From a virus, in the IMG/VR virus record IMGVR_UViG_3300033153_009458, positions 64,001 through 128,000 of that record: DNA of 64,000 nucleotides; one strand, written 5' to 3'. The translations under genes and the position numbers were made by a program. Below the pieces are notes generated by a model that did not search any database, had not been told where the DNA came from, and saw nothing but the letters and a program-made list of their open reading frames with translations. Below are positions 14,860 to 57,915 of this stretch, in pieces (position 1 is the stretch's first letter; the number at the start of each line of letters is the position of its first letter).

Positions 14860-14861
14860 CT

Positions 14862-21324: not shown

Positions 21325-21365
21325 AATAGACAATTTTAAATCAGACGTTGAACCATAAGGAAAAT

Positions 21366-21686: not shown

Positions 21687-21689
21687 AAA

Positions 21690-22094: not shown

Positions 22095-22100
22095 GGAAAT

Positions 22101-22409: not shown

Positions 22410-22419
22410 TAAGGTAAAT

Positions 22420-22800: not shown

Positions 22801-22807
22801 GGTTATT

Positions 22808-23465: not shown

Positions 23466-23472
23466 GGATAAT

Positions 23473-23763: not shown

Positions 23764-23766
23764 AAT

Positions 23767-24261: not shown

Positions 24262-24262
24262 T

Positions 24263-24562: not shown

Positions 24563-24563
24563 T

Positions 24564-24818
24564 ATGAAAACATTTGAAGAATTAGTAAATAAGAATTTGA
24601 ATGAAGTGTTTGATGATAAAACATACAAAATGTTAATACAAACTCTGTCTATTCAATTCAAAAAAAACGGGTATGATTGGTTATCACAAAAGGCCGAATA
24701 TATATCCAAAAATCACAAAGATGCTATAAAATATTTGAAAAAATTTAGAAAAGAAACTGAATCAATAGCATATAAAATTATTCAAGACGTAAAACACGGT
24801 ATCAATAACCAACATTAA
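24564..24818 (+). CDS. Putative internal head protein
   Basis: AAGGAG SD, MKTFEELVNKNLNE. Confidence 0.6.
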   Translation: MKTFEELVNKNLNEVFDDKTYKMLIQTLSIQFKKNGYDWLSQKAEYISKNHKDAIKYLKKFRKETESIAYKIIQDVKHGINNQH

Positions 24819-24828
24819 AAGGAAAAAT

Positions 24829-25050
24829 ATGAACAACTTTGAAAGATTACACGAAGAATTAACAGAAAAAAGCTTATCAGATGGAGAAGTTACGAACATG
24901 CTGAATCAATTAGTATCAAAAACCAAAGACGCTAAAAGCGGATCGGGTGTTGATATTAACAAAATGGCAAAGTCTATGTTGTCTAAAGATGGAGATCTTT
25001 CACCTGATCAGGTGAAATGGGCTATGCAAACATCAAAATCATTATCGTAA
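24829..25050 (+). CDS. Putative internal head protein
   Basis: MNNFERLHEELTE. Confidence 0.65.
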   Translation: MNNFERLHEELTEKSLSDGEVTNMLNQLVSKTKDAKSGSGVDINKMAKSMLSKDGDLSPDQVKWAMQTSKSLS

Positions 25051-25059
25051 AAGGGTATC

Positions 25060-25284
25060 ATGAATAACTTTGAAAGACTTCATGAAGAATTGACAGAAAA
25101 TGCACGAGAAGATAAAGCCAAGGCTAAAAAACTTGCTAAATGGTATTACGATGAATACAAAGGCAATTATAAAAAGGCGCACAAAGCTATTTTAAGTAAT
25201 GTTGTGAATAGTGGCAATCCGAATAATTCTAATCAATTTGTCGCATTTCTTTGGGATGAAGTCAAGAAACTTTGGCCCTCTTAA
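25060..25284 (+). CDS. Putative internal head protein
   Basis: MNNFERLHEELTE, same 13-aa leader as the previous gene with an unrelated body. Confidence 0.65.
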   Translation: MNNFERLHEELTENAREDKAKAKKLAKWYYDEYKGNYKKAHKAILSNVVNSGNPNNSNQFVAFLWDEVKKLWPS

Positions 25285-41226: not shown

Positions 41227-41949
41227 TTAGTTTTGTAGATAACTTAAAATTTCGTCTTGGTCATCTTTAGATGCACTTGCAGACTCTTCTAAATTTTTGT
41301 CTTGTTGTTCTTCAAGCTCTTTATCTTTTAGATCGTCGGCATTATCGTCATCGTCACCAGAACTATTAATAGTTTCTTTAAGTGTTTGTAATTTTGCTTC
41401 GAAAGTCTCTTCACCTTCGAATGACAATCCCTCTGCTAAATCTTCAAACTTTTTACGTTGAGAATCAATTTGAATCGACTCACCTTTTTTCTCAATCAGT
41501 TTTGTGATTTGCATTTCCTTAAGTTTTTCTTCCAATTCAATTTTTGCATTAACAGCATCGTTTAATTGTTCTTTTAAAGTATCAGATTGTAGTTCATCAC
41601 CTACGGCATCCTCAGAAAGGACCATATTGAACTCTGAAACCAAAGATTTAAAATGTTCTAAAACTTTTTCAGCTGTTTTAACTTTCACAGATTCGTTGAT
41701 CTGTTCAGTATTTTTTTCAACAAATTCGGAAGTAAACTCATTCAGGTAATTGTCTAATTGTGTTTCTAAGAATTGTTTGTATTCTTTCAATTCTTGTGCG
41801 TTCTCATCGGCTAATTCCTCTTTGAGTTTGTCTCTTTCATCAGAAAGTTTAGTCTCCATAATAACTGCCATTTTTTCGACTACTTCTTCTGTGAAAACCT
41901 TCTCATCGAGTTTTAAGCTTTTAATGAGATCTTTAAACTCTTTATCCAT
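41227..41949 (-). CDS. 22: Prohead core scaffold (gp22-like)
   Basis: Acidic coiled coil between 21 and 23; LDNYL, KFEDLAEGLSF. Confidence 0.85.
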   Translation of the reverse strand: MDKEFKDLIKSLKLDEKVFTEEVVEKMAVIMETKLSDERDKLKEELADENAQELKEYKQFLETQLDNYLNEFTSEFVEKNTEQINESVKVKTAEKVLEHFKSLVSEFNMVLSEDAVGDELQSDTLKEQLNDAVNAKIELEEKLKEMQITKLIEKKGESIQIDSQRKKFEDLAEGLSFEGEETFEAKLQTLKETINSSGDDDDNADDLKDKELEEQQDKNLEESASASKDDQDEILSYLQN

Positions 41950-41995: not shown

Positions 41996-42670
41996 TTACT
42001 CATTATCACGTCGATTTTTCCACGTAGTATTCAAAATCTTTTCGAATACATCCAGTAAAACCTCGTCTTTTGTCCGGCCTTTAAAATTGGCCAAATCGTC
42101 TTGTAGTTCTTCTAGTTGTTTTTCAACTAGTAATCCGTTTTCTAGAACCCATTCTGTTTTTGTTTCCATGATGTTATCAACCATACATCCTGTGGCTGAA
42201 GGTTCCCAAACAACATCATTGCATACGTATCGGTAATCGTTTTGTACAACACCTTCTTTGAGTGTACCAGTACCCCTTGTGGATACTCCAAAAGTGAAAC
42301 CGTCATCGATCAATCCTCTTAAAACTAGTCCTTTTCCCATTGATGTTATATTTGCTTCACCTATCACTGTGTGTTTATCCTTCCAGAAAAGTTTTTCAAT
42401 TTTTATGGCTATATTTTCCATATTAATTTCCATACTTTGTGGATGATTTAATTCACCAGCGGCTCGATTAGCTTTAATTAAAGCTTGATATTTTTCTACC
42501 TGTGGTTCAACCACTTGCCTAGGGTAAACTCTGTTATTTCTGTTTTTGATATCACACTCGATAAATGGACCTTTAATTTTATACTGTTTGTCTTTACCTT
42601 CACCAATAACGGGATTCTCGACAAGTCCGAAATCTATCTCTTCAATCAACAATTGAGGATCTGATTGCAT
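41996..42670 (-). CDS. 21: Prohead protease (gp21-like)
   Basis: KNRNNRVYP, GELNHP, GVSTRGTG, DVVWEPS. Confidence 0.95.
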   Translation of the reverse strand: MQSDPQLLIEEIDFGLVENPVIGEGKDKQYKIKGPFIECDIKNRNNRVYPRQVVEPQVEKYQALIKANRAAGELNHPQSMEINMENIAIKIEKLFWKDKHTVIGEANITSMGKGLVLRGLIDDGFTFGVSTRGTGTLKEGVVQNDYRYVCNDVVWEPSATGCMVDNIMETKTEWVLENGLLVEKQLEELQDDLANFKGRTKDEVLLDVFEKILNTTWKNRRDNE

Positions 42671-42703: not shown

Positions 42704-43030
42704 TTATTCTTTATCTTTCTTATCTTTACCGAACAAAGGCTTTTTATTGTCTTTACCTTTATCTTCATCGTCTTTATCATCACCCGAATCATCACCATCG
42801 GCGTCTTTTTCTTCTGGTTTAGCATCACCATCGGCGTCTTTTTTGTCATCGTCGCCTTCATCGTCTTCTTCCTTGACTTTCTTTTCGGCAAAAAGTTCAT
42901 CTTCGTAATGCTTAATTTTATCGCCTATTGCATCTTCAAACTTTTCTTCCATAGCATTTGCAATAAATTCTTTAAATGATACGTAGTCTTTTTTTGATGC
43001 ACCTAAAATCATTTGTTTGATCTCATCCAT
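42704..43030 (-). CDS. Prohead core protein (gp67-like) with acidic tail
   Basis: Position between 20 and 21; helical N-terminus, D/K-rich tail with KDADGD repeat. Confidence 0.65.
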   Translation of the reverse strand: MDEIKQMILGASKKDYVSFKEFIANAMEEKFEDAIGDKIKHYEDELFAEKKVKEEDDEGDDDKKDADGDAKPEEKDADGDDSGDDKDDEDKGKDNKKPLFGKDKKDKE

Positions 43031-43042
43031 AACACACTCTTA

Positions 43043-43225
43043 TTAAGGTTGTTTACTTTTCTCTGTTTTATTTATGTCTAAACGCTTTTTTATGTCTTTT
43101 TCAATTTCCAAATAGTGATTCCAAGCTATTTTTTCAATTAATTTCGACTTAGCTGATTCTTCAAAAGCCAAATAATCATTCTCTGACAGGATATCTATCA
43201 AAGATTTCTTTGATTTTTCATTCAT
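43043..43225 (-). CDS. Small prohead-core-like protein
   Basis: ENDYLAFEE parallels KKDYVSFKE of the neighbour; late promoter TATAAATA at 43251-43258. Confidence 0.5.
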   Translation of the reverse strand: MNEKSKKSLIDILSENDYLAFEESAKSKLIEKIAWNHYLEIEKDIKKRLDINKTEKSKQP

Positions 43226-43283
43226 AAAAGCGTTTGAATAGTATTAGTATTATTTATAAAGGTAGTTCATTTTTTGGTTTTTA

Positions 43284-44828
43284 TTAAAATCCACCTTCTT
43301 CTTTCGGTTCAGCGTCTTTTTCTGCTTGAATCTGTACAGACATTTTATTCATTTCTTCTTCGGTGAATCCTAAAATTTCAGATGCAATATATTGTTTACT
43401 GATCAGTCCACCCTCTTGATACAGTCGGAATGCAGAATCAGCAATATTAAATATCCCTTCTAAATTTTGAAGTTTCTTTAATCGTGCATAATCGTTATTA
43501 TTTTTGAATTTGTATTTGATTAAATCTTCAATATCATTCCAATCATTTAGAGCAAATACTTTAGTAATAATCAGTTCTTTTTTAAGTAAATCAGTAAAAA
43601 GAACCATGAATCTTTTTCTTAAATTCAAAATAAATTTAAAAAATTTAATTTCTTCGTTTTCAATTTCTATATTCTGAATATTAAGTGAATTTCCACGAGA
43701 TTCAGGATCACGTCTTGATACCGGAACGTTTAATGCTCGCCAAAGTTTTCGCCACATATAATCTAAATCAGCAATTTCTCCAACATCCATACCAGATCCT
43801 TCTAATCGTTCAACTTTAGTACCCCGGCCTTCAGAGTTTACAGCAAACCACATATCCTCTTGCATAGGAATTGATTTTTTACGATTTTCAACTTCACCGG
43901 TTGCTGTATTGTACGTTATCTTATTTCTAAAACGAGTCATTAGTTGTTTAATGTACTGTTCCGCTTTAGTTTTAGTCATCCGACCAGTGTCAACGTATAT
44001 TGCGTTTCTTGATGGTGAACGGGTCCACCTATAAATGATTAAAGATTCTTCAATCATATTTAAATCATTGACAACTTTAGCCGCTTTCTGTAAATTACTA
44101 ATAGAGAATAATCTGTCTTTTGAATAGATACCTGAATCAATATAAGCGATTTGTTCTGGTATATATTTGACTTTTGCCTTTTGGTAAAGACTAGTGAACG
44201 TACTTTGTGTAAAAGCCTGTCCATCCTGTTGGACTAATTGAGTATCCAGAAAATATCTTTTTTGCTTTGTTTCTGGATCAATTACACCGTAAAATCCTTT
44301 TGGTGGTAAGACTTCTAGATTTCTGATTCCTAATTTTGGTTGTGCGTTGTTGTATATAACTTCGAATGCTAGTGAACCGTCCACATACCAACGTTTGAAA
44401 AGATCTTCACCTTTAATTTTGAACTTCATCAGATTGTAAACTTTTTCAAAAGCTTCTTCTAATGATTTTTTCAATGTTTCGTTCATTTCGATATCTTCAA
44501 TATCTAATTCGAACGGTCTATCACCTGTTTCATCAAAAACAAATACTTCGTTGATAATTTCACCTAATGCATCGTCAACTTCGGGTGAGTACGTTAAATG
44601 CCGCCACTGATCAATCAATCGACTTTTTTCGGATACAATAAGAGCTATATCGAATCCGTACGAAAAGCTTTGATTGAGATTGGATGTTACAATTCCATCT
44701 TCGGTTGTAATTTCAGCCGGTGTGCTCGTTGAAAGCTTTTTATCATCGTTTGCAAGAATCTTGGCTTCACGCTCAGAGTAAAAAGATTTTTTTAACTCTT
44801 CTTTGAGTACATCTACTAATTTAGTCAT
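43284..44828 (-). CDS. 20: Portal protein (gp20-like)
   Basis: PEVDDALGEIINE, FKRWYVDG, IYRWTRSPSR..YVDTG, KAEQY, RGTKV, ALNVPVSR; late promoter at 44846-44853. Confidence 0.96.
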   Translation of the reverse strand: MTKLVDVLKEELKKSFYSEREAKILANDDKKLSTSTPAEITTEDGIVTSNLNQSFSYGFDIALIVSEKSRLIDQWRHLTYSPEVDDALGEIINEVFVFDETGDRPFELDIEDIEMNETLKKSLEEAFEKVYNLMKFKIKGEDLFKRWYVDGSLAFEVIYNNAQPKLGIRNLEVLPPKGFYGVIDPETKQKRYFLDTQLVQQDGQAFTQSTFTSLYQKAKVKYIPEQIAYIDSGIYSKDRLFSISNLQKAAKVVNDLNMIEESLIIYRWTRSPSRNAIYVDTGRMTKTKAEQYIKQLMTRFRNKITYNTATGEVENRKKSIPMQEDMWFAVNSEGRGTKVERLEGSGMDVGEIADLDYMWRKLWRALNVPVSRRDPESRGNSLNIQNIEIENEEIKFFKFILNLRKRFMVLFTDLLKKELIITKVFALNDWNDIEDLIKYKFKNNNDYARLKKLQNLEGIFNIADSAFRLYQEGGLISKQYIASEILGFTEEEMNKMSVQIQAEKDAEPKEEGGF

Positions 44829-44864
44829 AAGTTGCCATTTTTAATTATTTATACTTTCGTTTAA

Positions 44865-45275
44865 TTACGTACCCGGTCCACCCTTAACTTTCGCAGCTCG
44901 CCACTTGATTGCAAGTGTGTATGAACTTATATCTTGTCTTGATATTAGTTTGGCTGATGAAAATCTTTTCTTGATATATTGTCGAATCATGCGGTCAGCC
45001 AATTTTTTCGCATGTCCCATTTGTTGAATGAGTTTCCAAGTCCACCGAACAAAGATTCTTGGATTTTTTATTCGTTTTGATGCTCGGTCTAGATACCCAA
45101 CAAATCGAACTCTATCTTTTAGTGGTATCCAGTGTAAATTTAGAGCGAAAAGATGGCGGTTAGTCACACTTAAAACATATATTAAAGGTTTTTTATCCCA
45201 AATTGGAAGAATTTCTTTATATTTAGCTGAATATCGTCCATAATATACATAACCTCTTTCAAAATTAATTGTCAT
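44865..45275 (-). CDS. 2: DNA end protector (gp2-like, short)
   Basis: YSAKYKEILPIWDKKPL, ALNLHWIP. Confidence 0.75.
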   Translation of the reverse strand: MTINFERGYVYYGRYSAKYKEILPIWDKKPLIYVLSVTNRHLFALNLHWIPLKDRVRFVGYLDRASKRIKNPRIFVRWTWKLIQQMGHAKKLADRMIRQYIKKRFSSAKLISRQDISSYTLAIKWRAAKVKGGPGT

Positions 45276-45747
45276 TTAGTCTCTTAAATTTATATTTTTT
45301 TCTAACATAGTAATTTCGTTGTATCGATTCTGGTATTGTTGAATACCTTACTCCAATATATTTAGAAGCATCAAACATTGTATCAAATTTCATTAAAAGA
45401 ATTCCTTTTCGATCATACATAGCAACTGGTGTACATAAATTTCTTTTTTTTCTTGTTTCTTTAATTTTTTGTTTTGATTCTATTGTATGATTCTTATTAT
45501 ACATTGGATGATTTTCTTTATTTCTAAATCTTTTTTTAGCTGATAATTGGGCATTAAGCCTTACAATTTCTTCTTTACCTATTAATCCAGTTAATCCTTG
45601 CCAAGCAAATTTATCTTGATATCTTCCATATTCTTCGTACATAAATTTATGAACAGCTGCATGGCCGGGTATTGTAAGTTTAACTAAATTAGATTCATCA
45701 TCAGACCCGCCTAATGATTTTGGAATAATGTGATGTTTGTGTTTCAT
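45265..45747 (-). mobile_element. HNH homing endonuclease with NUMOD3/NUMOD1-like C-terminus
   Basis: KHKHHIIPKSLGG; HPMYNKNHTIESK; VAMYDRKG..F..M.DAS. Confidence 0.85.
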
Positions 45748-45755
45748 AATTTATA

Positions 45756-48700
45756 TTAACCTACGTATTTTTGAATCAACATTTGTAATTGACTTAATTT
45801 TCCTTCTGGATCTGTATGTAAAAATTCGTATAGATTAGTGATATCGATCACATCATTCAAGTCTGAATCGTTGTGAAACATCAGAACTGGTCCCTTTTGT
45901 GAATATTCGATATGCACGTTTGGTACGTTCTCTAATTTTTTGTTGAACTCTTCAAATTCGATTAACTCTCCTTTGTACGGTATTTGACCCGCCCGGAATA
46001 CAAACGATATACAATCTATATTTTCTTCTTTTCTTTTTTCCATTAGATAATCACTGAATGAAGCTAATCGATTATGGTATTCTTGTTGCGCTACATTAAC
46101 ACCATGCTTTTTAGCTAATTTTAACATTTCTGTCTTTTTGGTTAATCTAACTTTATGTACTTTTTTAATATCTAGTTGTGCTCTAGGATCAAATACAACC
46201 CATTCAGGTGAACGAATGCTATCTTTACCAGTTCCAGCCTCTTTAGAATCTCTACCTTTCTCACCAAGATAAGCTTCCATCTCAAAAATGTATCCTATAT
46301 TTCCTTGTCTTCTAGTGCCAGCACTCGCAAATGATCCAGTTCCTCTTAGATATTGTGCGCACTTGTCAAGTATATTTGAAAAATAAATACCATTTCCCAT
46401 CATTCGACCATTAACATTCATAATAGCACGATCTACAATAGCGAATCCGAACCTCAAAATGAATGAAGCGGCTACTGGATCTGTACCATGAAAAGCTGGT
46501 ACAATTGTCGGTGTTGGATACTGAGCTTTAAATATTTCGTGCTCTTTGTGTTTAAAAGTCACATTAAAAGAATCTATAATTTCAACACCTACGTTTCCAT
46601 GTGTAAATTTAGGTGAATAGTGAACAGAAAGATTGGCAGTAGCTTGTTCTTTTTCGAGATCTGTCATGACAATTTCTTCAGCTTGCAAAGGTGGAATAGT
46701 ATCGTCTCCATGAACTTCTTTTAATTTGGCAACAAATCTTTTTACAAATTCTTTTGTTGTTTCATCTTTCTTTAATCGCATTCGTGTTTCTTTAGTATTC
46801 GATACCTGAAAATTATTAATTGATAAAATTTGTTTCAATTTTTCAGGTTTCATTCTCTCTAACGGTGCAATTTTCGAATCATATAAACTTGTTTTTGATA
46901 ACACTTCAGTAAAAAAAGCTTCATCGATCATCTTCTTTCTTTTTTCGTAGTAGTAATTCGCATTCATCGGTCGAATTGTATCTAATTGATCTGAAAATGC
47001 ATCTTCATCATCTAAGTACAATTTATCCAGATATTTACTATAATATATACTTTCTTTGAAAAAATACGTATCTAATTTAGATATATGTTTTGCTATCTCT
47101 TTGTGTATTTCTTTAAAAAATTCAGAATAATCTCTTGTTTTTTTCTTTTTTTCATCTCGGCGTTTTTTCTGATCATTAATTTGTAAGAATAATTTTGTTA
47201 ATGTGTTTACTTGTGCCGAATCAAATCGTTCTGTTTTGATTTCTGATATCCAATCTGCTTGAAATAATTTAAATTCGTGATCGCTTAATTTTTCTAAAAA
47301 AGCAAGTGTAGTATCTTTTATTCCATTTACTCTCATACTGTTAATAAATAATTCTCTTCCTTTATATAAAGTATAATTTTTTACTTGGATGAAATTTTTC
47401 TCATCAATTTGACCTTTATCTAAAAAATCTGTTACGGTTGAACTTTCATCTTGAGTTAACCATATAGAAGCATTGTGTATGTTTTCAGGCTTGTCAGTGA
47501 GAAGATCACTAATTTGATCATTAAAATGTTCTGAAAAATATCCACTTAATATTGCAACTTCATCTCTTGATAAATTTTGAAATGTATCACTTTTATCAAA
47601 ATCAACTGATTCTTGATTTGCTCGTATACTGTATAAATCTGCCCATGCATAAAAACTATCTTTGTCAATATCAAGATACCAATATTTCATTCCACCACCA
47701 TATCGACTTGGTTTTGATTTTAGTAAGCGGCTCATTCTTTCAACAATAGGAATTATACCCCTTAATATATTTAGAAAGTCGCTAAATCTCCATGACGGTG
47801 TTCTCGAAGTTGCTTCATAATTTAAAATTCTTTGAAAATACGATTCTGGGTATTGGCGCATTTGTTCAGCTATTAAATTTTTTAAAGCTGTTTTTCCTTC
47901 TGGTTCAAATGGAGAATAGAAAAAATCATCTAGAAAATTATTACCAGATAATTGTAAATACAGATTTAAAAATTTTAGTCCGTAGACTTCATATAACCAC
48001 TTAATAATTGGTATTTCTTTATTATAAAGCCGACTTACATTTAGTCTTTTTTCGTCTTCTTCGCTGATATCTTCTAGGTGATTCGTTATATTGAAAAAAT
48101 TAAGTACATTTATATTTCCATTACCGTCTTTATCAACCCCGTACATAGTAAAAGGTATTCCTTGACCTTTTAGAATATCTAATTGACCAGCTTTTTTATA
48201 AAAATGGTATACATCACCACCGTTATCAATTATTGTTTGGTATCCTTTAATAGTTGTAACATCAAGCAAATTGATATTTGCAAAATACGCCTGATCTTGC
48301 ATAACTTCTCTTAAATATCTGAAGTATAATTGGTCTGGTTTGACATCATCATCAGTGATTCCCATGTGCAATAATTTTAGGGTTTCTTCTACTCTTACAC
48401 GATGTACGGCATAAGCATTACTGGCACCCATTTTAACAACTTTATCAATAAAACTCGGCATTGCCTTTTTTACAGCATTTACTTCATCAGGAAAATTTAT
48501 TGAACTTGATTCGCTCATATAATTGAAAATGAACCACGATAATAATTCTCTATCACTTAAACCCCATACTCGGTTAAGATCAACTAAATTTAATACTTGA
48601 CCTATTTTAACGTATTGATGATGGTCATCAATAAAGACTTTCATCATCATTGGTTTATCTGCTCTTAAAATACGTTGAATAGCTTCAAGATTTTGCATAT

Positions 48701-49910
48701 AATATAAATTGTCCATTATTTCCGATAACATGACAGTAGTATTATTTTTTTTAGCGGCTGTCATATTGTACGTTGAATTTTTAGACCAAAACTCCATAAA
48801 AGTATTTTTGTTCCATTTGAAATATTCTATTAAAAAATTATCAAACAATGGAGACGGTTTGAAAAATTTCATAATATTATCCATTACGTACGGTGTAAAA
48901 ACATCTGTTTCCTGAATAGCTTTCATGAATACACTTGTTCTTGTTACCGTTGTATTTCCTTTATCATCTTTATTTCTTGTTTTTACATCAACATTTTGGT
49001 GCTTCATGATATCACGTCGAATTAAAGTATAATTCGATTCTTTTTTAATATCTGTTACACTATGATATTTTATATTACTAACAAAATCTTTAATTTCTTG
49101 GTACGGTTTATCTTTGAATTTTCTAAAAAATACAGCATACCATGTATCACCTAACCAATTATCCGAAAAATCGTAATCTTCGATCATTTGTTGTTCATCG
49201 GACTTTGAGTCTTGTTTTGGTGGTACATTAGCCGGATCATCTTGTACCTGAACTGTCGGTGATATTATGATTACTGGATCAACTATGGTATCGGGTACTA
49301 AAGGGGCATTAGGGGCATCAACTATAGTTGGTGATTGATGAGCTTTGTCAACTTCGTCTTTATCATCAATATCAAGCCCCGGAAAACCGAGTCTTCGAAC
49401 CATCTTGATAAAATCGTTGTTAATTTTGTGCTTCCTAGAATACGCAAAAAAGAACTTCATCAATTCATTCAGAGTAAGATCCGCCCGCATAAAACTGAAC
49501 AAATGCACTCGAAGAATACCGTCTATTTGAATCATCCTGTACTTGATTTGATCTAGCATCTTTCTAATCTGGATTTCATCTATTGATATAATTTTATCCT
49601 TTTTAATCAGTGCTAAAAATCTAGTAATCTTATTAATCCCGGCTATCGGTGCAAGCTTATTATCTACAAGAAATTTGATAGTCCACATCAAATCATTGCT
49701 TGTATCTGTTATAGCTTTTGGAACGAGTTTTTCACGTTTAATGTATTGCTTAACGTAATTATTGTCTGGATGTTCTTTGAACATAGCAATGTATCCAAGA
49801 AAATTAATGAAAAAAGAAGTCGCAATAACTGTATCTTTTTTCAGTTTGTCCTTGATAGGATCGATAAAATTTTCTCTTCCTTCAGCAATATACGTCTTAA
49901 ACGATTCCAT
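45756..49910 (-). CDS. 1384-aa putative virion-packaged protein with C-terminal PARP-type ADP-ribosyltransferase domain
   Basis: MESFKTYIAE leader; FHGT, GRMMGNGIYFS, KCAQY, PEWVVFD. Confidence 0.8.
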   Translation of the reverse strand: MESFKTYIAEGRENFIDPIKDKLKKDTVIATSFFINFLGYIAMFKEHPDNNYVKQYIKREKLVPKAITDTSNDLMWTIKFLVDNKLAPIAGINKITRFLALIKKDKIISIDEIQIRKMLDQIKYRMIQIDGILRVHLFSFMRADLTLNELMKFFFAYSRKHKINNDFIKMVRRLGFPGLDIDDKDEVDKAHQSPTIVDAPNAPLVPDTIVDPVIIISPTVQVQDDPANVPPKQDSKSDEQQMIEDYDFSDNWLGDTWYAVFFRKFKDKPYQEIKDFVSNIKYHSVTDIKKESNYTLIRRDIMKHQNVDVKTRNKDDKGNTTVTRTSVFMKAIQETDVFTPYVMDNIMKFFKPSPLFDNFLIEYFKWNKNTFMEFWSKNSTYNMTAAKKNNTTVMLSEIMDNLYYMQNLEAIQRILRADKPMMMKVFIDDHHQYVKIGQVLNLVDLNRVWGLSDRELLSWFIFNYMSESSSINFPDEVNAVKKAMPSFIDKVVKMGASNAYAVHRVRVEETLKLLHMGITDDDVKPDQLYFRYLREVMQDQAYFANINLLDVTTIKGYQTIIDNGGDVYHFYKKAGQLDILKGQGIPFTMYGVDKDGNGNINVLNFFNITNHLEDISEEDEKRLNVSRLYNKEIPIIKWLYEVYGLKFLNLYLQLSGNNFLDDFFYSPFEPEGKTALKNLIAEQMRQYPESYFQRILNYEATSRTPSWRFSDFLNILRGIIPIVERMSRLLKSKPSRYGGGMKYWYLDIDKDSFYAWADLYSIRANQESVDFDKSDTFQNLSRDEVAILSGYFSEHFNDQISDLLTDKPENIHNASIWLTQDESSTVTDFLDKGQIDEKNFIQVKNYTLYKGRELFINSMRVNGIKDTTLAFLEKLSDHEFKLFQADWISEIKTERFDSAQVNTLTKLFLQINDQKKRRDEKKKKTRDYSEFFKEIHKEIAKHISKLDTYFFKESIYYSKYLDKLYLDDEDAFSDQLDTIRPMNANYYYEKRKKMIDEAFFTEVLSKTSLYDSKIAPLERMKPEKLKQILSINNFQVSNTKETRMRLKKDETTKEFVKRFVAKLKEVHGDDTIPPLQAEEIVMTDLEKEQATANLSVHYSPKFTHGNVGVEIIDSFNVTFKHKEHEIFKAQYPTPTIVPAFHGTDPVAASFILRFGFAIVDRAIMNVNGRMMGNGIYFSNILDKCAQYLRGTGSFASAGTRRQGNIGYIFEMEAYLGEKGRDSKEAGTGKDSIRSPEWVVFDPRAQLDIKKVHKVRLTKKTEMLKLAKKHGVNVAQQEYHNRLASFSDYLMEKRKEENIDCISFVFRAGQIPYKGELIEFEEFNKKLENVPNVHIEYSQKGPVLMFHNDSDLNDVIDITNLYEFLHTDPEGKLSQLQMLIQKYVG

Positions 49911-50454
49911 GTACTTTTTTACCTAGCTCTATTTTTTTGTGAATTTCTTTTATTATTTTTTTGTGTATTGGATTTAACGATCTTTTCATTAATCTAAAAA
50001 TTTCAAGTGTTTCATCTGTGTATTTTTGAACCCATTTTTTAGGCGCACGAGCAAAATCACTTACATTGTCAAGTCGATCAGCCAATTTGATGAGTAATTC
50101 TTCATCGGACATTTTATTCATTTTGTGCGCGTAGTATTCCGGCTTGCCGTATTTCTTTTCCGCTTTAGTATTCTTAGTTAAAGTTTGAACCAAGTCGGCT
50201 ACACGTTTACCGAAAGTTGCTTCTATCTCTTCGTAAGTTGCCGGTGTATCTTCAATTGTATCGTGTAACTGAGCGGCTGATATTATATCTTTGTCGGCTG
50301 TGAATTTCGCAACCATTTTGGCTACTCGATTCGGGTGTGATATAAACGGCTCAAAAGTAAATCTTCGATTCTGTCCACTATGCCTGAATTGAGCAACACT
50401 AGCTGCGTGATCTGGTGTCGTCATTTCTTTTACTATTTGTTTAAATGTTCTCAT
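49897..50454 (-). CDS. RelA/SpoT-type HD hydrolase (small alarmone hydrolase/Mesh1-like)
   Basis: EPFISHP, AAQLHDTIEDT, FGKRVADLV..LTK, IKLADRLDN; MRTFKQIVKE leader. Confidence 0.88.
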   Translation of the reverse strand: MRTFKQIVKEMTTPDHAASVAQFRHSGQNRRFTFEPFISHPNRVAKMVAKFTADKDIISAAQLHDTIEDTPATYEEIEATFGKRVADLVQTLTKNTKAEKKYGKPEYYAHKMNKMSDEELLIKLADRLDNVSDFARAPKKWVQKYTDETLEIFRLMKRSLNPIHKKIIKEIHKKIELGKKVHGIV

Positions 50455-51375
50455 GTTGCATTTATAGCTGTTTTTACCATGTCCTTAAAGCTGAAATTCG
50501 TTAGATTTTTTGCTTTGGTTTTATTCCTATTTACTATATCTTGATATTCTGGTGACTTAACGATCTTGATTATATCTTTGTAATCCCTTGATCCTTTTTG
50601 TACTTCTTGCTTTTTGTTTTTCATCCATTGGTAAAACTTCACAACTATATCGTCGAGTCCTTTTTTATGAAGACACGCAATAAACTTACTTGAGTCACCT
50701 TTTGCGTTTACTTTACACGCTTGCATATCTGTTTTTGCGTCTTCTTCGAGCAAGCTATTTTCAAACTCTTCTATAAAATTCATATTTAACCTTTTGGTAA
50801 ATCTGTTTTCATTTTCTTTAGAAGTTTTATTAAATCATCTATTTGTTTTTGTACTACAAACTCTATTGTATTATTACCTTGTTTAATAAATAATTCATCA
50901 GCTTCACCTATTCCAATTTTTGTTAATGGTGAAACTCCTGATAAAACGACATTTTTGGTTTCTAACATATCTTTAAAAGTTTTCATATTGTAAATTTCCT
51001 GTCAGCTGTTTTAAAATTTTTCTTTCGCATAACCGTCTTACCTACTAAATCGAACATCTTTGATCGCCTGTTGTATTCAAAAACAAACGGCATGTTTAAA
51101 TCAGTCATCATATCATTAATAACCGCTTGTGTTTTGTGTGATAATTTAGCTATTTCTTTACCATATTTTCTGTACGATTCCTTAAATAATCGCATCAATT
51201 CAGCAACGGTAATAAGTTGTCTTTCATTTCGTTTATCATTAACCCGCTTTAAAAAATGACCAGTAAAAGCAACATCAATTCCTAAAGTTTGAAAGAGCTT
51301 ATCAGCGTATTTTTCAATACCTTTTAACTCTTGTTGCGATACTTCTTCATTTAAAAATTGCTTGAAAGTTTTCAT
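50451..51375 (-). CDS. Three putative internal head proteins (50451-50783, 50786-50986, 50983-51375)
   Basis: MNFIEEFENSLLEE, MKTFKDMLE, MKTFKQFLNEE. Confidence 0.65.
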
Positions 51376-51611
51376 ATATTTTTCAAATTTACTGATAAAA
51401 TTTTTGACTGAGTTAAAAAACCTGTATCGATTGCAAAACGGATCATATCTTCATCATTGTCTTCAAAAATATCTAAACAAATACGATGTGCAAAATAATG
51501 TCCATCTAAATTACCAAGATTATTAGTATTCCAACCAAAATATGCTTGATGGGTATCTGTAAATTTTTTACCACACCAACGGCACCTTGATTCTTTTCCT
51601 TCGTCTATCAT
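51372..51611 (-). CDS. Small zinc-finger-like protein
   Basis: CRWC...HRIC. Confidence 0.55.
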   Translation of the reverse strand: MIDEGKESRCRWCGKKFTDTHQAYFGWNTNNLGNLDGHYFAHRICLDIFEDNDEDMIRFAIDTGFLTQSKILSVNLKNI

Positions 51612-52000
51612 TCTTTAAGAAACCGTATTTGACTTTTAAGATCTTTTACTGAATTATTAACGTACCGCTTACTCGCCTTTTTTTCTTGTAATTCTTTTAT
51701 TTTTAGGTTTATACGCTTTTCCATAGCTTCTATATTTCTATCAAATTCTTCAATATCTTTTTCAAGATCACTTACATCTATTTTTCCTGAATTTTGTATA
51801 TCTGTGATATCTTTAGAATTACCTTGAATCTGAAGTTGATAAAATACGGCTGTCGAAACAAAAAAAGCTACTACAATAATAATTTTAAGTACTGTAGGCA
51901 TATCGAATTCTAATTCAGTAACATCTACTCGACCATCGCCTTTACGTTTGTCTTCTCCTTCGAACTTTTCTTTTTTTATCCGTTTTTCTTTTTTTACCAT
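51608..52000 (-). CDS. Single-pass membrane coiled-coil protein
   Basis: VLKIIIVVAFFVSTAVFY then heptad-rich region. Confidence 0.65.
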   Translation of the reverse strand: MVKKEKRIKKEKFEGEDKRKGDGRVDVTELEFDMPTVLKIIIVVAFFVSTAVFYQLQIQGNSKDITDIQNSGKIDVSDLEKDIEEFDRNIEAMEKRINLKIKELQEKKASKRYVNNSVKDLKSQIRFLKE

Positions 52001-52011
52001 TTGATTTCCCC

Positions 52012-52179
52012 CTACTTAAATCTATTGTGCATCCAATATTCGTATTCAATGTATTCGTTCAGTTCTTTGGGTGTCCATCCGTTTTTAATCATTAAATACA
52101 ATATATGTCCTAACGATAGTGATATATACAAACAATACAAACCGCCGATATAAAGAAGCGCACTTATAATAAAACTCAT
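52012..52179 (-). CDS. 55-aa membrane peptide (not in track)
   Basis: MSFIISALLYIGGLYCLYISLSLG...; ATGA overlap with upstream gene. Confidence 0.55.
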   Translation of the reverse strand: MSFIISALLYIGGLYCLYISLSLGHILYLMIKNGWTPKELNEYIEYEYWMHNRFK

Positions 52180-52538
52180 CTGACAATTTTTCCTGTATTT
52201 GGAATAATTTGTATAGCTCTATCATCCCAAAATTCACGCATCCCGTTATCTTTTATATTCGTTACTTCAAGCCCGCCTATACCATGAAGCTCTAACCATT
52301 TTTCAATATATGGTATTGCTTTTGGATCTGTTGCCCTAGCAGTAAAAATTTTTATTGTTTTTCCTTCTTGTATCCATTTACGCACTCGTGCAAGCATAGC
52401 TGGTATCGGTTCACCGATATGGCCTTCACCTTTCCAACCATCGTAATACGCCAACGTCCTGTCTAAATCAACTGCGATTGATTCGGTGTACGTCTTTAAT
52501 GTGTCACTTTCCATAATATATTCTTTAAAAGTTTTCAT
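52176..52538 (-). CDS. HAD-superfamily phosphatase with CTS-like leader
   Basis: IAVDLDRTLA, IFTAR, TNIK, WDDRA; MKTFKEYIME. Confidence 0.8.
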   Translation of the reverse strand: MKTFKEYIMESDTLKTYTESIAVDLDRTLAYYDGWKGEGHIGEPIPAMLARVRKWIQEGKTIKIFTARATDPKAIPYIEKWLELHGIGGLEVTNIKDNGMREFWDDRAIQIIPNTGKIVR

Positions 52539-52762
52539 AGAACACTTTTTTCCTGTTTTTCACAATACGGACAAGGATGCCCACTCGGTAATTTTTTATT
52601 TAAATCAATAGTTGTTTCTTTAGTCCATTTAGAACAAATTAAACGCATTTTGTTATCGTCTAGTAATTCGAATGGATGATTACGTTTCCAATTCGGGCTG
52701 TATTTTTTATCGAACATGTCCGATACTTCTTGAATATTTAAATATTCTCTAAATGTTTTCAT
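52535..52762 (-). CDS. Small protein with CTS-like leader and CPYC
   Basis: MKTFREYLNIQE. Confidence 0.6.
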   Translation of the reverse strand: MKTFREYLNIQEVSDMFDKKYSPNWKRNHPFELLDDNKMRLICSKWTKETTIDLNKKLPSGHPCPYCEKQEKSVL

Positions 52763-53763
52763 TTAAATTTTACTCTCCATTTATTTAAATCAAACCAACC
52801 TTCATAATCATAATCATCGTACATAATTCCTTTTGTTAAAATATTACCACTTACGGCTCTTTGCATTTTTTTAACAAAACCATTACAATCTAGGACCGAA
52901 AATTTGTATTTTTTATCTAATACTTCTTCAATTATATCGTAAACTAAACCACCATCGTTTAAATGCCATTCTAAGAATTCGGTGTACTCACCTTCTGGAT
53001 AACTATCTGATAAAGCCTTCATATTGCTGTGTCTAAGTTCTACTTGTCCTAAGTTCAAATGTCGAACTCCAATTTTATCAATAATTGGCAACATTTCAAA
53101 TAATTCTTTTCGATGGTTAGGCCAAGAAGGTGTTTCTATACTCACCGTGTTGAGTATTCCAACTGCTTCTTCTATTGTACGGTATATCTTTTCTGAAAAA
53201 TTTGATGCACCGATATGAATTCGAATTTCATCAAAACCTATTTCTTTTAAAAAAAGAAGTTTTTCATTGGTTAAGCTCATTCCATTTGTGTATACATAAT
53301 ACCAAATTGGACTTTTCAATTCGGGTTCAATAAAATTTTTAAAATATTTTGTACCGTGTGCAATCATATCTAAATGTAAAATTGGATCACCACCACCAGA
53401 AAATGATAATGAATGAACTTTACTTTTTTCATTTATAACTCTACTTAAAGCCCACTCAACCTCTTGTTTAAAAATATCGGGGATAGTGTGAATCTTTGTT
53501 TTTTTTTCGTTATTGTGTGATTCACGATTATCAGTACAATAATCACAATTTGCTTGGCATAAATTTGGCTGCCCAAATAAAGATGGACCAACATTCATTT
53601 TTAATTGGCCGTACGCAAAGCATCCAACACATCCCGGTGATAATTTACCTGTGTGAGCGCAATGTCCATTAGCGTGTATTCGTAAACCTTTAAGTTTTAA
53701 TTTATTTTGTCGATCAAATATTTTTTGGTATGCTTCTTGTATTGGTAATAATTTCATATTCAT
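52759..53763 (-). CDS. Radical SAM protein
   Basis: CQANCDYC, SGGGDP, YTNG, DEIRIH; extra N-terminal SPGCVGC. Confidence 0.88.
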   Translation of the reverse strand: MNMKLLPIQEAYQKIFDRQNKLKLKGLRIHANGHCAHTGKLSPGCVGCFAYGQLKMNVGPSLFGQPNLCQANCDYCTDNRESHNNEKKTKIHTIPDIFKQEVEWALSRVINEKSKVHSLSFSGGGDPILHLDMIAHGTKYFKNFIEPELKSPIWYYVYTNGMSLTNEKLLFLKEIGFDEIRIHIGASNFSEKIYRTIEEAVGILNTVSIETPSWPNHRKELFEMLPIIDKIGVRHLNLGQVELRHSNMKALSDSYPEGEYTEFLEWHLNDGGLVYDIIEEVLDKKYKFSVLDCNGFVKKMQRAVSGNILTKGIMYDDYDYEGWFDLNKWRVKFK

Positions 53764-53780
53764 TTTATTAAGTTAGTTAG

Positions 53781-54293
53781 TTAATGTATTTTTGCTCTTT
53801 GTTTTATATATTCATTGAATTGACTTTTTCCTGTGTGGTTTTTTGTTAATTCTATTAAAAAATCTTGTGTAACTAATAAATGCCAAAAAATACCTTTTTT
53901 ATTTTTTGGATTCAATAGTTTTGAATTGTTTAATACTTTTTGGTGATCTTTTTCAACTATTGCTGCTAATTTATTATGCCCGATGAATATACTATTTTCA
54001 TTTTTTGGATTAAATAAATCTTCTAAAAAATCGATTCTTTCAATAGCACCTTTTCGAGTTTTCATTAATTTTGATGGAGCATTTCTTAATAAATCCCATT
54101 GTGTTGTATCTCGTGTTTCTAAAAGACTTACTCTTTGGCTTAATACATCAATTTGTTTATTGTTGTTTGATATCACCACTGTTACTGAAGTAACAGCCGT
54201 TGCAGTGACGAATACAACAAATAAAATAATTGCAATTAATTGTCGTACTGTTATTGTGGCCTTATCAGCGGCTATTGTTTTATCTGTTGTCAT
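53781..54293 (-). CDS. N-terminally anchored membrane protein
   Basis: LIAIILFVVFVTATAVTSVTVVI; LFNPKN/LLNPKN repeat. Confidence 0.65.
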   Translation of the reverse strand: MTTDKTIAADKATITVRQLIAIILFVVFVTATAVTSVTVVISNNNKQIDVLSQRVSLLETRDTTQWDLLRNAPSKLMKTRKGAIERIDFLEDLFNPKNENSIFIGHNKLAAIVEKDHQKVLNNSKLLNPKNKKGIFWHLLVTQDFLIELTKNHTGKSQFNEYIKQRAKIH

Positions 54294-55090
54294 TATGCGT
54301 ACTTGAATTCGTATTCTTTGATTTCAATTTTAATTCTTTTCATTAGATGATCCCAAAAGCCGGTTAGTCTTTTAATCCATTTTTTCTTGTATTTTTCATC
54401 GTATCGATCTATATCAGCGTATTTTCTAATCAAATCAAGAAACCATATATAATCTTTTTCTCTAAGTTTTACTAAATTCATACGTTGCTCTAAAGACATT
54501 TCATTATAAACAACTTTTTCAAAATAACTTACAGCCGCTTGATAAAATGCGTTGAATTCTTTAGGATTACTCATATAATCACTAGTAGATTGATAAACTT
54601 TATCTATCTTATCAAAATAATTATCTGGATTTTTCCAACGTTTTTTGTCCATCAAATGTATAACTTCATGAATAAAAGTTTCACGTTGTTTTTTAAATTT
54701 ACCTGCTACTTTTCCATCATTAGATCTTTTGTTAAAATCCCATGCCGGTGGTAATGCGTATATAATTATTAAGTCTTTATTTTCAATAGTAGTGCTGAAC
54801 GAACCATGTGTAAATTTTTTTTCACCTGATGGTCTAATTGTACTACCTTCTTTCATTTCAATTGTTAAATTTAATTTGTTAAATCGCTCACTAGCTCCTT
54901 GTACTTTAATTAATTCAAGACAATAAAATAACGGTCCTTCGTCTGAACGTTTACCAAGAAAAACATATTTAAATCTTTGTGATGGGTTTTTAAGCAAATT
55001 GTAAACACGTATGTATAACTTGTCCGCTATTACACGAAAAGCCGTATCCCGTTTTGCATCTTCTTCTAAGTATTGTCTAAATCGCTTCAT
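54293..55090 (-). CDS. HExxH putative zinc metallopeptidase with CTS-like leader
   Basis: MKRFRQYLEE; TFIHEVIH...PKEFNA. Confidence 0.65.
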   Translation of the reverse strand: MKRFRQYLEEDAKRDTAFRVIADKLYIRVYNLLKNPSQRFKYVFLGKRSDEGPLFYCLELIKVQGASERFNKLNLTIEMKEGSTIRPSGEKKFTHGSFSTTIENKDLIIIYALPPAWDFNKRSNDGKVAGKFKKQRETFIHEVIHLMDKKRWKNPDNYFDKIDKVYQSTSDYMSNPKEFNAFYQAAVSYFEKVVYNEMSLEQRMNLVKLREKDYIWFLDLIRKYADIDRYDEKYKKKWIKRLTGFWDHLMKRIKIEIKEYEFKYA

Positions 55091-55563
55091 AATTTAATTC
55101 CTAAATCACTCTCAGTAAAAATTTGAAAATATAATTTTCTACCAGTTTCTCGCCTCACCTTTGCACAAAAAAGTTTAGCGGCATCGAATTTGTTCTCATT
55201 CTTTACCCATTCAGCTAGTCTTTTATTATATGCTTTCGTTACTCTTTTAGGTTTTTTTGGCTTTTGTAATTTAGCTTTTGGTTTAACTTCAACAAGATAT
55301 TCTTTTATATCTCCATCGTTATCATTTACCTTCACCCAAAAATCAATAAAATATCTGTGTATTTTTTTATCAATATCGTATTTGTATTTTATGTGATCTT
55401 CAGAACTCCATTCCATAACTGAAGGATTTGAGTCTAAAAATCCCTTAACAAATTTTATCTCGTACGAACTCCTTAACGTAATTGGTCTTCTTCCGGTGTA
55501 TTTTTCCGGGTGTTTCAAATACGGGTAATACTCTGCTATTTGTTTATATTTGGACCTGTTCAC
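55087..55563 (-). CDS. 4: Head completion nuclease (gp4-like)
   Basis: HPEKYTG, RSSYE, WSSE, HRYFIDFW, LVEVKP. Confidence 0.9.
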   Translation of the reverse strand: MNRSKYKQIAEYYPYLKHPEKYTGRRPITLRSSYEIKFVKGFLDSNPSVMEWSSEDHIKYKYDIDKKIHRYFIDFWVKVNDNDGDIKEYLVEVKPKAKLQKPKKPKRVTKAYNKRLAEWVKNENKFDAAKLFCAKVRRETGRKLYFQIFTESDLGIKL

Positions 55564-56042
55564 TAAGCAATCCTAGAATAAGTGTAATAATCACAATTCA
55601 TAGCTACGTCAACCGTGATATTCGTATTATCTGAGTCCGAAGAATTAAAATTGATATCACTTATACTTTCAAACCACGAACTATGAAACTGAAACTCCAT
55701 AATTGGATGATTCATATTATCCATTAACTGCAAGATCCCTAGAAATGTGTGTTCAGGATCTTGCATGTTAGTTTCCATATTTTTTATCTGACTCATATGA
55801 TCTAAGATTTGTTCTAAAGCAAGCAATCTATCGTCGAGTATAACAGTCAAATTAATCGGATTTACAGTGATAGAATCACCAGGATACTTCCTAGGTATAC
55901 CCATATCATTGTGTTCAGTTAATCCTAGTGTAATACCTAATCCACTGATTTGTTGACACTGAAAATCTATATTTTCGTGACCCGGTTCAGCGATAGTAAA
56001 ACTGAAATTTGTTGAACTAAATTGTGCCGCTGTAAATCCCAT
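55563..56042 (-). CDS. 3: Tail completion/tube terminator (gp3-like, tail-tube fold)
   Basis: STNFSF, FQCQ..SGLGITLG, PGD, ILDDRL, F...WFESISDINF. Confidence 0.7.
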   Translation of the reverse strand: MGFTAAQFSSTNFSFTIAEPGHENIDFQCQQISGLGITLGLTEHNDMGIPRKYPGDSITVNPINLTVILDDRLLALEQILDHMSQIKNMETNMQDPEHTFLGILQLMDNMNHPIMEFQFHSSWFESISDINFNSSDSDNTNITVDVAMNCDYYTYSRIA

Positions 56043-56695: not shown

Positions 56696-57328
56696 TTATT
56701 CTCCTTTAGCTATATTAATTATTTTACTTAATTTTTCTCTGAGATCTTCATTTTCTTTTTCGAGCAACATAGCTCTTTCTTTAAAAATCACGAGAGATTT
56801 TACATCAAACGGATTAGATAAACCTGACAATCTTTCGGTCGATACTAATTCAAAATGTGGAAAATCTACAAATTTGGTTTCTTTAAGATCCCAATCTTGA
56901 TCCCAATCTGTACCGTTTTTTACTTGAATACCCATTGCTTGTGCTAAACCTAAAACAAACCCGGCAAAAATAGCAAATTCTACTTCTTCTTCCCAATCAA
57001 TATGTGGTGTTCGATGCCCGTAATACGGTACCGCATCAACAGCCATTGATGGTGTTGAATTATGCTTAGAGTCCGGCCATTTAACTTTTGTTATTTGTGG
57101 TACTGCGTTAAAAAATCTATTTTGAGTTTCTTCATTTCTGTGACCACAAATAACCGAACAATCAAACCATTTAACTACTTCTTCAAACAATTCTTGTAAT
57201 AGTGGATGAGCTTCACTTAAATTTCTTGCTGATGTACTTCCGAAACTTGGCATAACTTTCTCCTTTGAATTTGTTCGTTTCGAGAACACTTGGAGTATTT
57301 TAAATAATATTTCAAGTATTTTTCTCAT
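56696..57328 (-). CDS. Endolysin, M15-family L-Ala-D-Glu peptidase (alternative start MPSFG at 57253)
   Basis: SARNL..AHP.L, CGHR, SKH...AVD, DW...DFPHFEL. Confidence 0.88.
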   Translation of the reverse strand: MRKILEILFKILQVFSKRTNSKEKVMPSFGSTSARNLSEAHPLLQELFEEVVKWFDCSVICGHRNEETQNRFFNAVPQITKVKWPDSKHNSTPSMAVDAVPYYGHRTPHIDWEEEVEFAIFAGFVLGLAQAMGIQVKNGTDWDQDWDLKETKFVDFPHFELVSTERLSGLSNPFDVKSLVIFKERAMLLEKENEDLREKLSKIINIAKGE

Positions 57329-57336
57329 GTTTTTAT

Positions 57337-57915
57337 TTATAGTTTATTTTTTAGCTTCTCTATATCAAGTTTAATTTTATTATGATTTTCAGTATTTTTT
57401 TCTTTATATTGCTTCAAATCTTTTTCTGATTCGTCAATATCTTCTTTTATATCTTCAACTTGAATATTTACTGATTTTCTAAATTGTGCGCAGCCTTGAA
57501 TATGTGCCTTGAAATCCCCTTGTAAATCAAAATAAGAAAATAAACCCCCGGCTGTAAAGATAACAAACATAATAATAACAATAAGCCAAGGTGCCCATTT
57601 ACGCTCTGATCGTTGGTTCATTTGATTCTCGACATCGGTGGCTGTTACGTAGTGACCTTTTTCAAAAGTTTCGAGTTGTTTTCTGAGGCTTTTAAATTCT
57701 TCACCAGCTAGTAATTTTTTAGTATCTTGAAGTTCTTGATTATGCGAGAATTCGGTTAAAACTTCTTGTTTTAAGTGTTCGAAAGCTTGTGAGATTTGTT
57801 CAAATTTTGAATCTGTGTAATCTTTTTGATTAGATTCAACTAATTTTTGAATTTTTGTGATGGTTTCGTTAATTTGTTGTAAAGAACCATTTCCGTTATT
57901 GTCATTAGGTGGCAT
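57337..57915 (-). CDS. Membrane coiled-coil protein
   Basis: Central WAPWLIVIIMFVIFTAGGLFSYF flanked by coiled coils. Confidence 0.65.
   Translation of the reverse strand: MPPNDNNGNGSLQQINETITKIQKLVESNQKDYTDSKFEQISQAFEHLKQEVLTEFSHNQELQDTKKLLAGEEFKSLRKQLETFEKGHYVTATDVENQMNQRSERKWAPWLIVIIMFVIFTAGGLFSYFDLQGDFKAHIQGCAQFRKSVNIQVEDIKEDIDESEKDLKQYKEKNTENHNKIKLDIEKLKNKL

Follow-up and report, generated by a model that had tools for sequence, protein, structure and literature searches.

A T4-type leader as a probable capsid-targeting signal on enzymes and small basic proteins of an uncultured phage

Eight neighbouring genes in a 64,000-nucleotide stretch of viral DNA share an N-terminal leader that resembles the capsid targeting sequence (CTS) of bacteriophage T4. 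This stretch, termed the window, comprises bases 64001–128000 of a 151,141-bp genome (IMG/VR record IMGVR_UViG_3300033153_009458; GC content about 31%), and positions below are those of the window unless stated otherwise. The genes lie at 45756–55090, between genes for head and neck proteins, and their predicted products include a PARP-class ADP-ribosyltransferase (ART), a small alarmone hydrolase (SAH), a HAD-type phosphatase and a protein with an HExxH...E motif. The leader is probably a T4-type capsid-targeting and cleavage leader, through which these enzymes, along with several small basic proteins, would be loaded into the phage head. That the cargo is then delivered to the host and acts there early is less certain than head loading.

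In T4, the CTS (MKTYQEFIAE) is removed after targeting, and the remainder of the protein stays in the head (bioRxiv 10.1101/2021.01.19.427310). The prohead protease gp21 cuts short N-terminal peptides off IPI–III and gpAlt, as well as nine residues off its own chain, and the T4 head core holds about 40 copies of Alt, which are delivered with the DNA (PMC9958956). The internal proteins (IPs) of T-even phages have only the leader in common (PMC12373910; PMC3012670), and Ip1–3 are small, injected binding inhibitors of GmrSD nucleases (PMC12373910).

A corresponding series of steps would operate in the phage described here. The tagged proteins would be made late, together with the head and neck proteins, and would be docked by their leader in the scaffolding core as the prohead grows. 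A gp21-type (Peptidase_S77) protease would then cut after the Glu of a hydrophobic-x-Glu site (YIAE/G, IVKE/M, YIME/S and YLEE/D, the slash marking the cut), and the mature, mostly basic proteins would stay packaged alongside the DNA and accompany it into the next host cell. The predicted cargo consists of a 160-kDa PARP-class ART, which would belong to the other ART class and match T4 Alt in function; an SAH whose likely substrates are (p)ppGpp, (p)ppApp or related 3ʹ-pyrophosphates; a minimal HAD phosphatase; a putative HExxH...E metallopeptidase; and four small proteins. Co-expression, docking, cleavage, retention and injection, as well as every substrate, are what we infer from these genes.

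The leader and its distribution

A strict form of the leader, M[KRE][TSR]F[KR]xx[ILVM], heads seven of the eight genes (Table 1). The eighth, which encodes a 110-residue protein, starts with the looser MNFIEEFENSLLEE, which resembles a dialect (MNNFERLxEELxxE) of another leader cluster in the window. In a crude gene set for the whole genome (281 open reading frames [ORFs]; 46,825 residues), the strict motif occurs 11 times, in 11 of 11 cases at residue 2, and has no internal occurrences. At the DNA level, the pattern ATGAARACNTTYARR, a degenerate version of the leader, was found five times in the window, with 0.08 occurrences expected. The leader codons vary between copies (AAA/AAG, ACA/ACT, TTT/TTC and AAA/AGA), and these synonymous differences indicate that conservation acts on the peptide.

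Cleavage in T4 proheads follows a hydrophobic-x-Glu rule, and every leader contains [ILVMFY]-x(1-2)-E within residues 8–14. The leader of the HAD protein, MKTFKEYIME, is identical to the T4 CTS at five of ten positions (M1, K2, T3, I8 and E10), and at positions 4 and 7 the two sequences exchange Y for F and F for Y; MESFKTYIAE on the ART and MKTFKQFLNE on a 130-residue protein are also close to it. The likeness to the T4 CTS and internal proteins extends beyond the peptide itself to a leader length of about ten residues with a Glu site, unrelated and mostly basic bodies, clustering of the genes and the presence of gp21, gp22, gp20 and gp23 homologs. Unlike the leader of the T4 internal proteins, that found here and on related contigs also heads predicted enzymes (SAH, HAD, HExxH, NUDIX and nucleotidyltransferase proteins).

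With both dialects counted, about 21 of the 281 genome ORFs carry a leader. These genes form three clusters: one after uvsY and behind a late-promoter-like box, one between gp4 and gp2, and one just upstream of the gene for the gp15 tail sheath stabiliser. All three are co-directional with late or structural genes, and the first, at 20701–25284, belongs to the same leader system as the cluster at 45756–55090. Within the latter interval, five ORFs have no leader, and the tag is therefore selective. An initial annotation of this DNA had quoted eight T4-like N-termini just upstream of gp2 and the portal gene and had named, as an outcome that would count against virion cargo, a leader equally common on non-virion genes. 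All eight N-termini are present at the genes named, with gp4 upstream and the HNH gene, gp2 and portal gene downstream, and the leaders were correctly described as CTS-like and as standing in front of ordinary enzyme domains in a phage with a T4 head-assembly set. Moreover, the check on non-virion genes speaks for virion cargo, as no annotated replication or metabolism gene is tagged.

Tagged proteins also differ from the rest of the proteome in charge. Their median isoelectric point (pI) is 9.45, compared with 6.57 for the remaining proteome (p = 3e-5). The same shift is evident within the SAH family, in which tagged members have a median pI of 9.49 versus 6.53 for untagged ones (p = 4e-4, a value inflated by relatedness), and it appears in two separate clades.

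A search of IMG/VR for related loci with the HD protein (the SAH) and gp4 returned no relatives, and relatives were instead obtained by protein searches. On one 96.9-kb contig (L003), about 12 leader genes follow uvsY at positions 7863–18132, and the bodies behind the leaders include NUDIX, HD_4, PolyA_pol-type nucleotidyltransferase and cytidylyltransferase-like domains. The uvsW product of this contig has Hint/intein matches. On a second contig (L004), the tagged proteins include one with an HD_4 domain, and on a third (L009) leaders occur throughout a structural module, which also contains a homolog of the HExxH protein. The leader is also present in a cultured phage, Paraglaciecola Antarctic GD virus 1 (PANV1; MW805361), where about 11 genes starting MKSF/MKTF...E follow a recombination-protein gene (2379–10231 of locus L011). 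The paper on PANV1 does not mention the leader genes and reports no virion proteome. In marine and soil T4-like phages, the body of the 130-residue protein recurs, with homologs in Methylophilales phage Melnitz, PANV1 and Sinorhizobium phage phiM12; in PANV1 the protein begins with MKSFEQYIEE. A relationship of the 130-residue protein to a 603-residue leader protein of L003 was considered and rejected, as direct comparison found the two to be unrelated.

Enzyme bodies behind the leader

Family, profile and motif searches upheld the PARP, SpoT-type HD, HAD and HExxH domain calls of the initial annotation. The targets that the annotation had named for these proteins (NAD+, alarmones, phosphorylated ends and proteins) would be plausible for such families. 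The tagged SAH (Table 1) is assigned by its sequence to the RelA/SpoT-type hydrolases, with metal-binding and catalytic motifs intact and a probable substrate taken from the domain family. Its HD_4 domain begins at residue 17, and the TIGR00691 (spoT_relA) model covers residues 18–153. The protein matches the PDB entries for Lmo0812 and Mesh1 with E of about 1e-17 and with HD and ED motifs aligned, and the alignment to 4yf1 and 3nqw retains SHP, LHDTIEDT and ADRLDN. Like Mesh1, Lmo0812, the Pseudomonas aeruginosa SAH, Aph1 and phage SAHs, it consists of a single RelA/SpoT hydrolase domain with HD and ED motifs. It differs from these in its CTS-like leader and strongly basic charge, both of which it has in common with a clade of at least seven relatives, whereas the SAHs of cultured phages start at the domain. 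The latter comprise 131 records that match from about residue 17 and are leaderless; the one cultured-phage case examined for context, the ACP17 SAH, is likewise leaderless and lies among metabolism genes.

The nearest SAH homologs are tagged as well (MVNFKELVLE, MKTFKTILDE, MKSFKQLLE, MKTFKDFIQE and others), and distant homologs have no leader and start directly at the first helix. The first conserved His is at offset 22–29 in leader-bearing homologs versus about 12–17 in leaderless ones. When the N-terminus was left out of tree building, seven of the tagged proteins grouped together and other tagged ones fell elsewhere, a pattern that requires at least three gains or losses of the leader.

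The HAD protein is predicted to be a minimal HAD-superfamily phosphatase with all four motifs present. As a single sequence it had no Pfam match; a profile of its family matches PDB 1xpj (E 1.3e-5) with the motifs aligned, and 40 relatives all retain D24, D26, T66, K96, D105 and D106, with T28 nearly invariant as well. The nucleophile Asp lies no more than 12 residues from the start in 92 of 119 homologs (median offset 9), versus 23 here, and a handful of other homologs carry hydrophobic-x-Glu extensions of their own. On the SAH and the HAD enzyme, then, these alignments show the leader to be an add-on of about ten residues that most homologs lack. The initial annotation had described it as such, and in the leaderless homologs the first catalytic motif lies nearer the start by about 10 (HD) to about 14 (HAD) residues.

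The ART is classed by its motifs with the PARP-type (H-Y-E) ADP-ribosyltransferases, its likely substrate being that of the family. The catalytic domain spans approximately residues 1080–1270 and scores 28.2 bits against Pfam PARP, which has a curated cut-off of 26.7. In the alignment with PARP1, FHGT corresponds to the catalytic His and GIYFS to the catalytic Tyr, both within the scoring alignment; PEWVVFD is set opposite NEYIVYD of PARP1, the site of the catalytic Glu, by a further stretch that is not significant, and this placement rests on the motif. The domain follows a long N-terminal region, for whose first approximately 1000 residues an Atlas search found nothing. The protein belongs to phrog_18612 over its full length, and homologs of about 1200 residues occur in T4-like phages of Stenotrophomonas, Aeromonas, Ralstonia, Xanthomonas and Pseudomonas. 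In comparison with the two that were examined, the bodies align from about residue 12, and the N-terminal stretches differ. In Stenotrophomonas phage Moby and Aeromonas phage Aeh1, the ART homologs are located near NAD-salvage genes (NMN adenylyltransferase/Nudix and nicotinamide phosphoribosyltransferase) and also near gene 32 and dexA, and one ART homolog of Aeh1 adjoins an ADP-ribosylglycohydrolase-like gene.

As in T4 Alt, which has an N-terminal peptide removed by gp21, a large enzyme of NAD+-using type here bears the leader. T4 Alt belongs to the R-S-E class of ARTs. The ART described here is twice as long, at 1384 residues, and is of the PARP class with an H-Y-E motif, and because of this difference in class it would be an analog rather than an ortholog of Alt. 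Membership in the Alt family was considered and rejected, given that PARP was the sole family match and that a tblastn search against phages gave 37 hits, none of them to a Tequatrovirus record.

The HExxH protein is a candidate gluzincin-like metallopeptidase. A word-based homolog search returned only the protein itself, and an exhaustive search found 77 distant relatives. Among 50 of these, H141, E142, H145, Y172, E178, N180 and R241 are invariant. An AF2 model from the alignment reached a pLDDT of 85.8 (43.6 from the single sequence), with residues 2–6 disordered and the HExxH helix following a beta sheet. Its best Foldseek match, the predicted zincin 3e11, is weak (E 0.17); VIA-align 2 matched only the helical C-terminus; and Atlas leads to M78 and SprT are weak. 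Because fold searches gave no convincing match, the metallopeptidase label rests on the motif.

The HExxH proteins look phage-borne: their Atlas neighbours are 88–100% viral, and the one long contig examined (L009) is a T4-like structural module. Nearly every member has a hydrophobic-x-Glu leader 4–5 residues ahead of a conserved Asp, which suggests a dedicated head protein family whose leader is ancestral. PHROGs contains no family for any of the 50 members. Five relatives on other contigs (P0115, P0120, P0142, P0156 and P0175) have a conserved YR(Q)AADPxRD start instead of hydrophobic-x-Glu, which may represent a variant site that another prohead protease cleaves. In four others (P0105, P0107, P0111 and P0130), the HExxH module is present two to three times in single proteins of 771–1439 residues, and these look like multi-module cargo polyproteins.

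The initial annotation had proposed that captured enzymes were given the leader. As to the added leader, this stands for the HD and HAD proteins. It does not stand for the HExxH protein, which comes from a family that looks phage-borne and has a near-universal leader, nor, as worded, for the ART, which belongs to a T4-like phage family in which each member examined has its own N-terminal stretch.

The head operon and its neighbours

The tagged genes are embedded in a T4-type structural region (Table 1). From gp4 through gp2, gene starts and stops overlap or lie at most 17 nucleotides apart. T4-type late promoter boxes (TATAAATA) are located upstream of the cluster at 57334 and 58451 and before the portal gene at 44846, with none inside the cluster; sigma-70-like sites and terminators are not enriched. 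From this arrangement, we reasonably infer that the cluster is co-transcribed late with the head genes.

The source phage is assigned to the T4 superfamily as an uncultured, distant member, because a near-identity DNA search with positions 43000–56000 against 50,697 phage records gave no match and the major capsid protein is only about 30% identical to its cyanophage and Vibrio T4-like counterparts.

Table 1. Features of the head operon and of the first leader cluster (window positions; strict and looser refer to the leader motif)
Feature	Position	Strand	Leader	Support or remark
First leader cluster, ~12 small basic proteins	20701–25284	+	two dialects
Major capsid protein	39623–41212	-		T4-type head module
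Head scaffolding protein, gp22-like; presumed prohead-core docking matrix	41227–41949	-		phrog_237, 1.6e-21
T4 gp21-type prohead protease; presumed leader-removing enzyme	41996–42670	-		Pfam Peptidase_S77 1.4e-26; phrog_207 6.9e-51
Two small core-like proteins	between prohead protease and portal	-
Portal	43284–44828	-
gp2-like DNA end protector	44865–45275	-		phrog_429, 1.3e-23; downstream end of operon
HNH homing endonuclease	45265–45747	-
Leader-gene interval	45756–55090	-		between HNH gene and gp4
1384-residue protein with PARP-class ART domain	45756–49910	-	MESFKTYIAE (strict)	Pfam PARP 1.6e-6; phrog_18612 1e-69
185-residue predicted SAH	49897–50454	-	MRTFKQIVKE (strict)	Pfam HD_4 1.8e-21; TIGR00691
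110-residue basic protein	50451–50783	-	MNFIEEFENSLLEE (looser)	no Pfam or PHROG family match
66-residue protein	50786–50986	-	MKTFKDMLE (strict)
130-residue basic protein	50983–51375	-	MKTFKQFLNE (strict)	phrog_23027 8.5e-22, from residue 12
Three small ORFs: one Cys-rich (79 residues; 51372–51611), two membrane-like (51608–52000, 52012–52179)	51372–52179	-	none	hydrophobic stretches and N-termini judged by eye
120-residue predicted minimal HAD-type phosphatase	52176–52538	-	MKTFKEYIME + short linker (strict)	invariant motifs; PDB 1xpj
75-residue protein with Cys-containing C-terminus	52535–52762	-	MKTFREYLNIQE (strict)	directly downstream of radical SAM gene
Radical SAM enzyme	52759–53763	-	none	Pfam Radical_SAM 3.4e-5, below cut-off; CxxxCxxC
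170-residue protein with membrane-like hydrophobic stretch	53781–54293	-	none	judged by eye
265-residue basic HExxH...E protein	54293–55090	-	MKRFRQYLEE (strict)	candidate gluzincin-like metallopeptidase
gp4-like head closure protein	55087–55563	-		phrog_218, 1.4e-35; upstream end of operon; stop overlaps HExxH gene start
Tail tube	55563–56042	-

The head proteins themselves carry sites of the kind found in the leaders. The scaffold has 18 hydrophobic-x-E sites, and in the major capsid protein WLTE/D (WLTE/DNGTG), 36 residues ahead of GVQPL, is likely the propeptide boundary. The prohead protease begins with MQSDPQLLIEE, a hydrophobic-x-Glu-type site, and this start fits a predicted self-removal of about ten residues, as in T4 gp21. 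Beside the protease gene, a 108-residue core-like protein (42704–43030) has an internal CTS-like SFKEFIANAMEE at residues 18–29 and a long, very acidic Asp/Glu/Lys tail.

The gp2-like protein has only 136 residues and covers positions 62–167 of a 210-position profile, and the start of its gene overlaps the end of the HNH endonuclease gene. The gp2-like gene may have been shortened or split by the endonuclease.

The radical SAM enzyme gave weak NCBIfam maturase matches and has a second, N-terminal Cys cluster. PADLOC returned only weak viperin-like matches, to this protein, and nothing else. The enzyme and the adjoining 75-residue Cys-containing protein are a possible enzyme–substrate pair.

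Alternative readings and implications

Head loading through the leader is the probable reading of these data, and several points weigh against it. The late promoter boxes are not enriched in the window (16 found, 12.6 expected), and late transcription is read from them together with the gene packing. With a pI of 6.7, neither the HAD protein nor the ART is basic, and the 160-kDa ART would have to exit through the tail. Additionally, a lone gene beyond the window (genome positions 57054–57806; L006 555–1307), which encodes a 250-residue protein matching phrog_37685, starts with the leader-like MRSFSAFIADLNEA outside the structural clusters, as a solitary plus-strand gene where the early-type genes around it lie on the minus strand. 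More generally, one sequence-level consensus cannot prove targeting. In the literature, no virion proteome was found for this phage or any relative; in particular, none bearing on leader proteins was found for pf16 (which has an ART homolog), PANV1 or phiM9/phiM12, and nothing useful was found on marine T4-like virion proteomics. Nor did the literature yield a paper on leader sets of this kind.

The leader could also load proteins into the prohead core for work done there, with the products serving as extra scaffold, DNA-condensing internal proteins or head maturation factors and the HExxH protein, for example, as an accessory maturation protease. Most T4 core proteins (gp22, gp67 and gp68) are indeed degraded after assembly (PMC9958956), most leader proteins resemble DNA-binding internal proteins in their small size and strong basicity, and the HExxH family looks phage-borne, with members in structural modules and an almost universal leader. 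However, a role confined to the head leaves unexplained the tag on catalytically intact SAH, HAD, NUDIX and nucleotidyltransferase domains, the substrates of which are cytoplasmic small molecules or RNA and are absent from the head. Moreover, a leader of this kind marks the IPs and Alt of T4, which are injected and exert their effects in the host (PMC12373910, PMC9958956). Such a role is considered unlikely, though less so for the HExxH protein than for the others.

Less probable still is a shared N-terminus that is no sorting signal at all and instead reflects translation initiation, or a downstream box, in late genes rich in A, or a recognition peptide for the radical SAM enzyme, as in RiPP-like systems. 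The leader DNA is A/T-rich, and the radical SAM gene is part of the cluster and lies directly upstream of a tagged Cys-containing protein. Against an initiation feature, residues are kept while codons vary, the peptide stays conserved in phages that differ in composition, and the invariant terminal Glu fits a protease site. The recognition-tag version is rejected because leaders occur where the enzyme was not found: homologs are absent from the whole PANV1 and Melnitz records and from the fetched parts, of about 20 kb each, of L003, L004 and L009 (contigs of 25–167 kb), and T4 has a CTS without a radical SAM enzyme. Finally, although clustering of the genes and brief stretches of identical DNA at their starts could promote recombination, a functionless remnant of recent duplication or recombination between neighbours is barely credible for bodies from unrelated families, with leader DNA that differs at synonymous sites, the same leader type on homologs in distant phages and a motif that is never internal.

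Head loading by a cleaved N-terminal signal has precedents beyond T4. Reports on DarA, DarB and Hdf of P1 and on the ejection proteins of phiKZ and SPN3US describe enzymes or anti-restriction proteins and their loading into the head by N-terminal signals, processing by the prohead protease and ejection (PMC12810830, PMC9024508, PMC7411985, PMC10052503). The signals, head architecture and cargo differ from those described here, and packaging in those phages was proven by proteomics, whereas here it is predicted from the genes.

The principle of leader-directed packaging is known from T4, where the leader cargo characterised so far consists of the GmrSD inhibitors and Alt. New in the phage described here would be the enzyme cargo, above all the tagged SAH clade, the PARP-class analog of Alt, a leader-bearing HExxH family absent from PHROGs and the basic shift. 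A broader proposal is more tentative, namely that a marine and freshwater T4-like lineage converts cytoplasmic enzymes into pre-made effectors, co-injected with the DNA, by means of a decapeptide and a shift to basic charge. Under this proposal, the SAH might wipe out signalling by (p)ppGpp or (p)ppApp, or undo pyrophosphorylation of the toxSAS type, as the DNA enters and before phage genes are expressed, and the PARP-class ART might be a second, independent invention of the Alt strategy.

If this holds, the portable leader would be a general route by which T4-like phages deliver working enzymes at time zero, including SAHs, phosphatases, NUDIX proteins, nucleotidyltransferases, a PARP-class ART and a putative protease, and injected effectors would be predictable from sequence. 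Pre-made phage proteins may then have the stringent response or a toxSAS defence layer as a target. Related proteins are encoded by two phages in culture, PANV1 and Melnitz, and the combination of leader and basic shift would offer a simple recipe for protein packaging in non-model phages.

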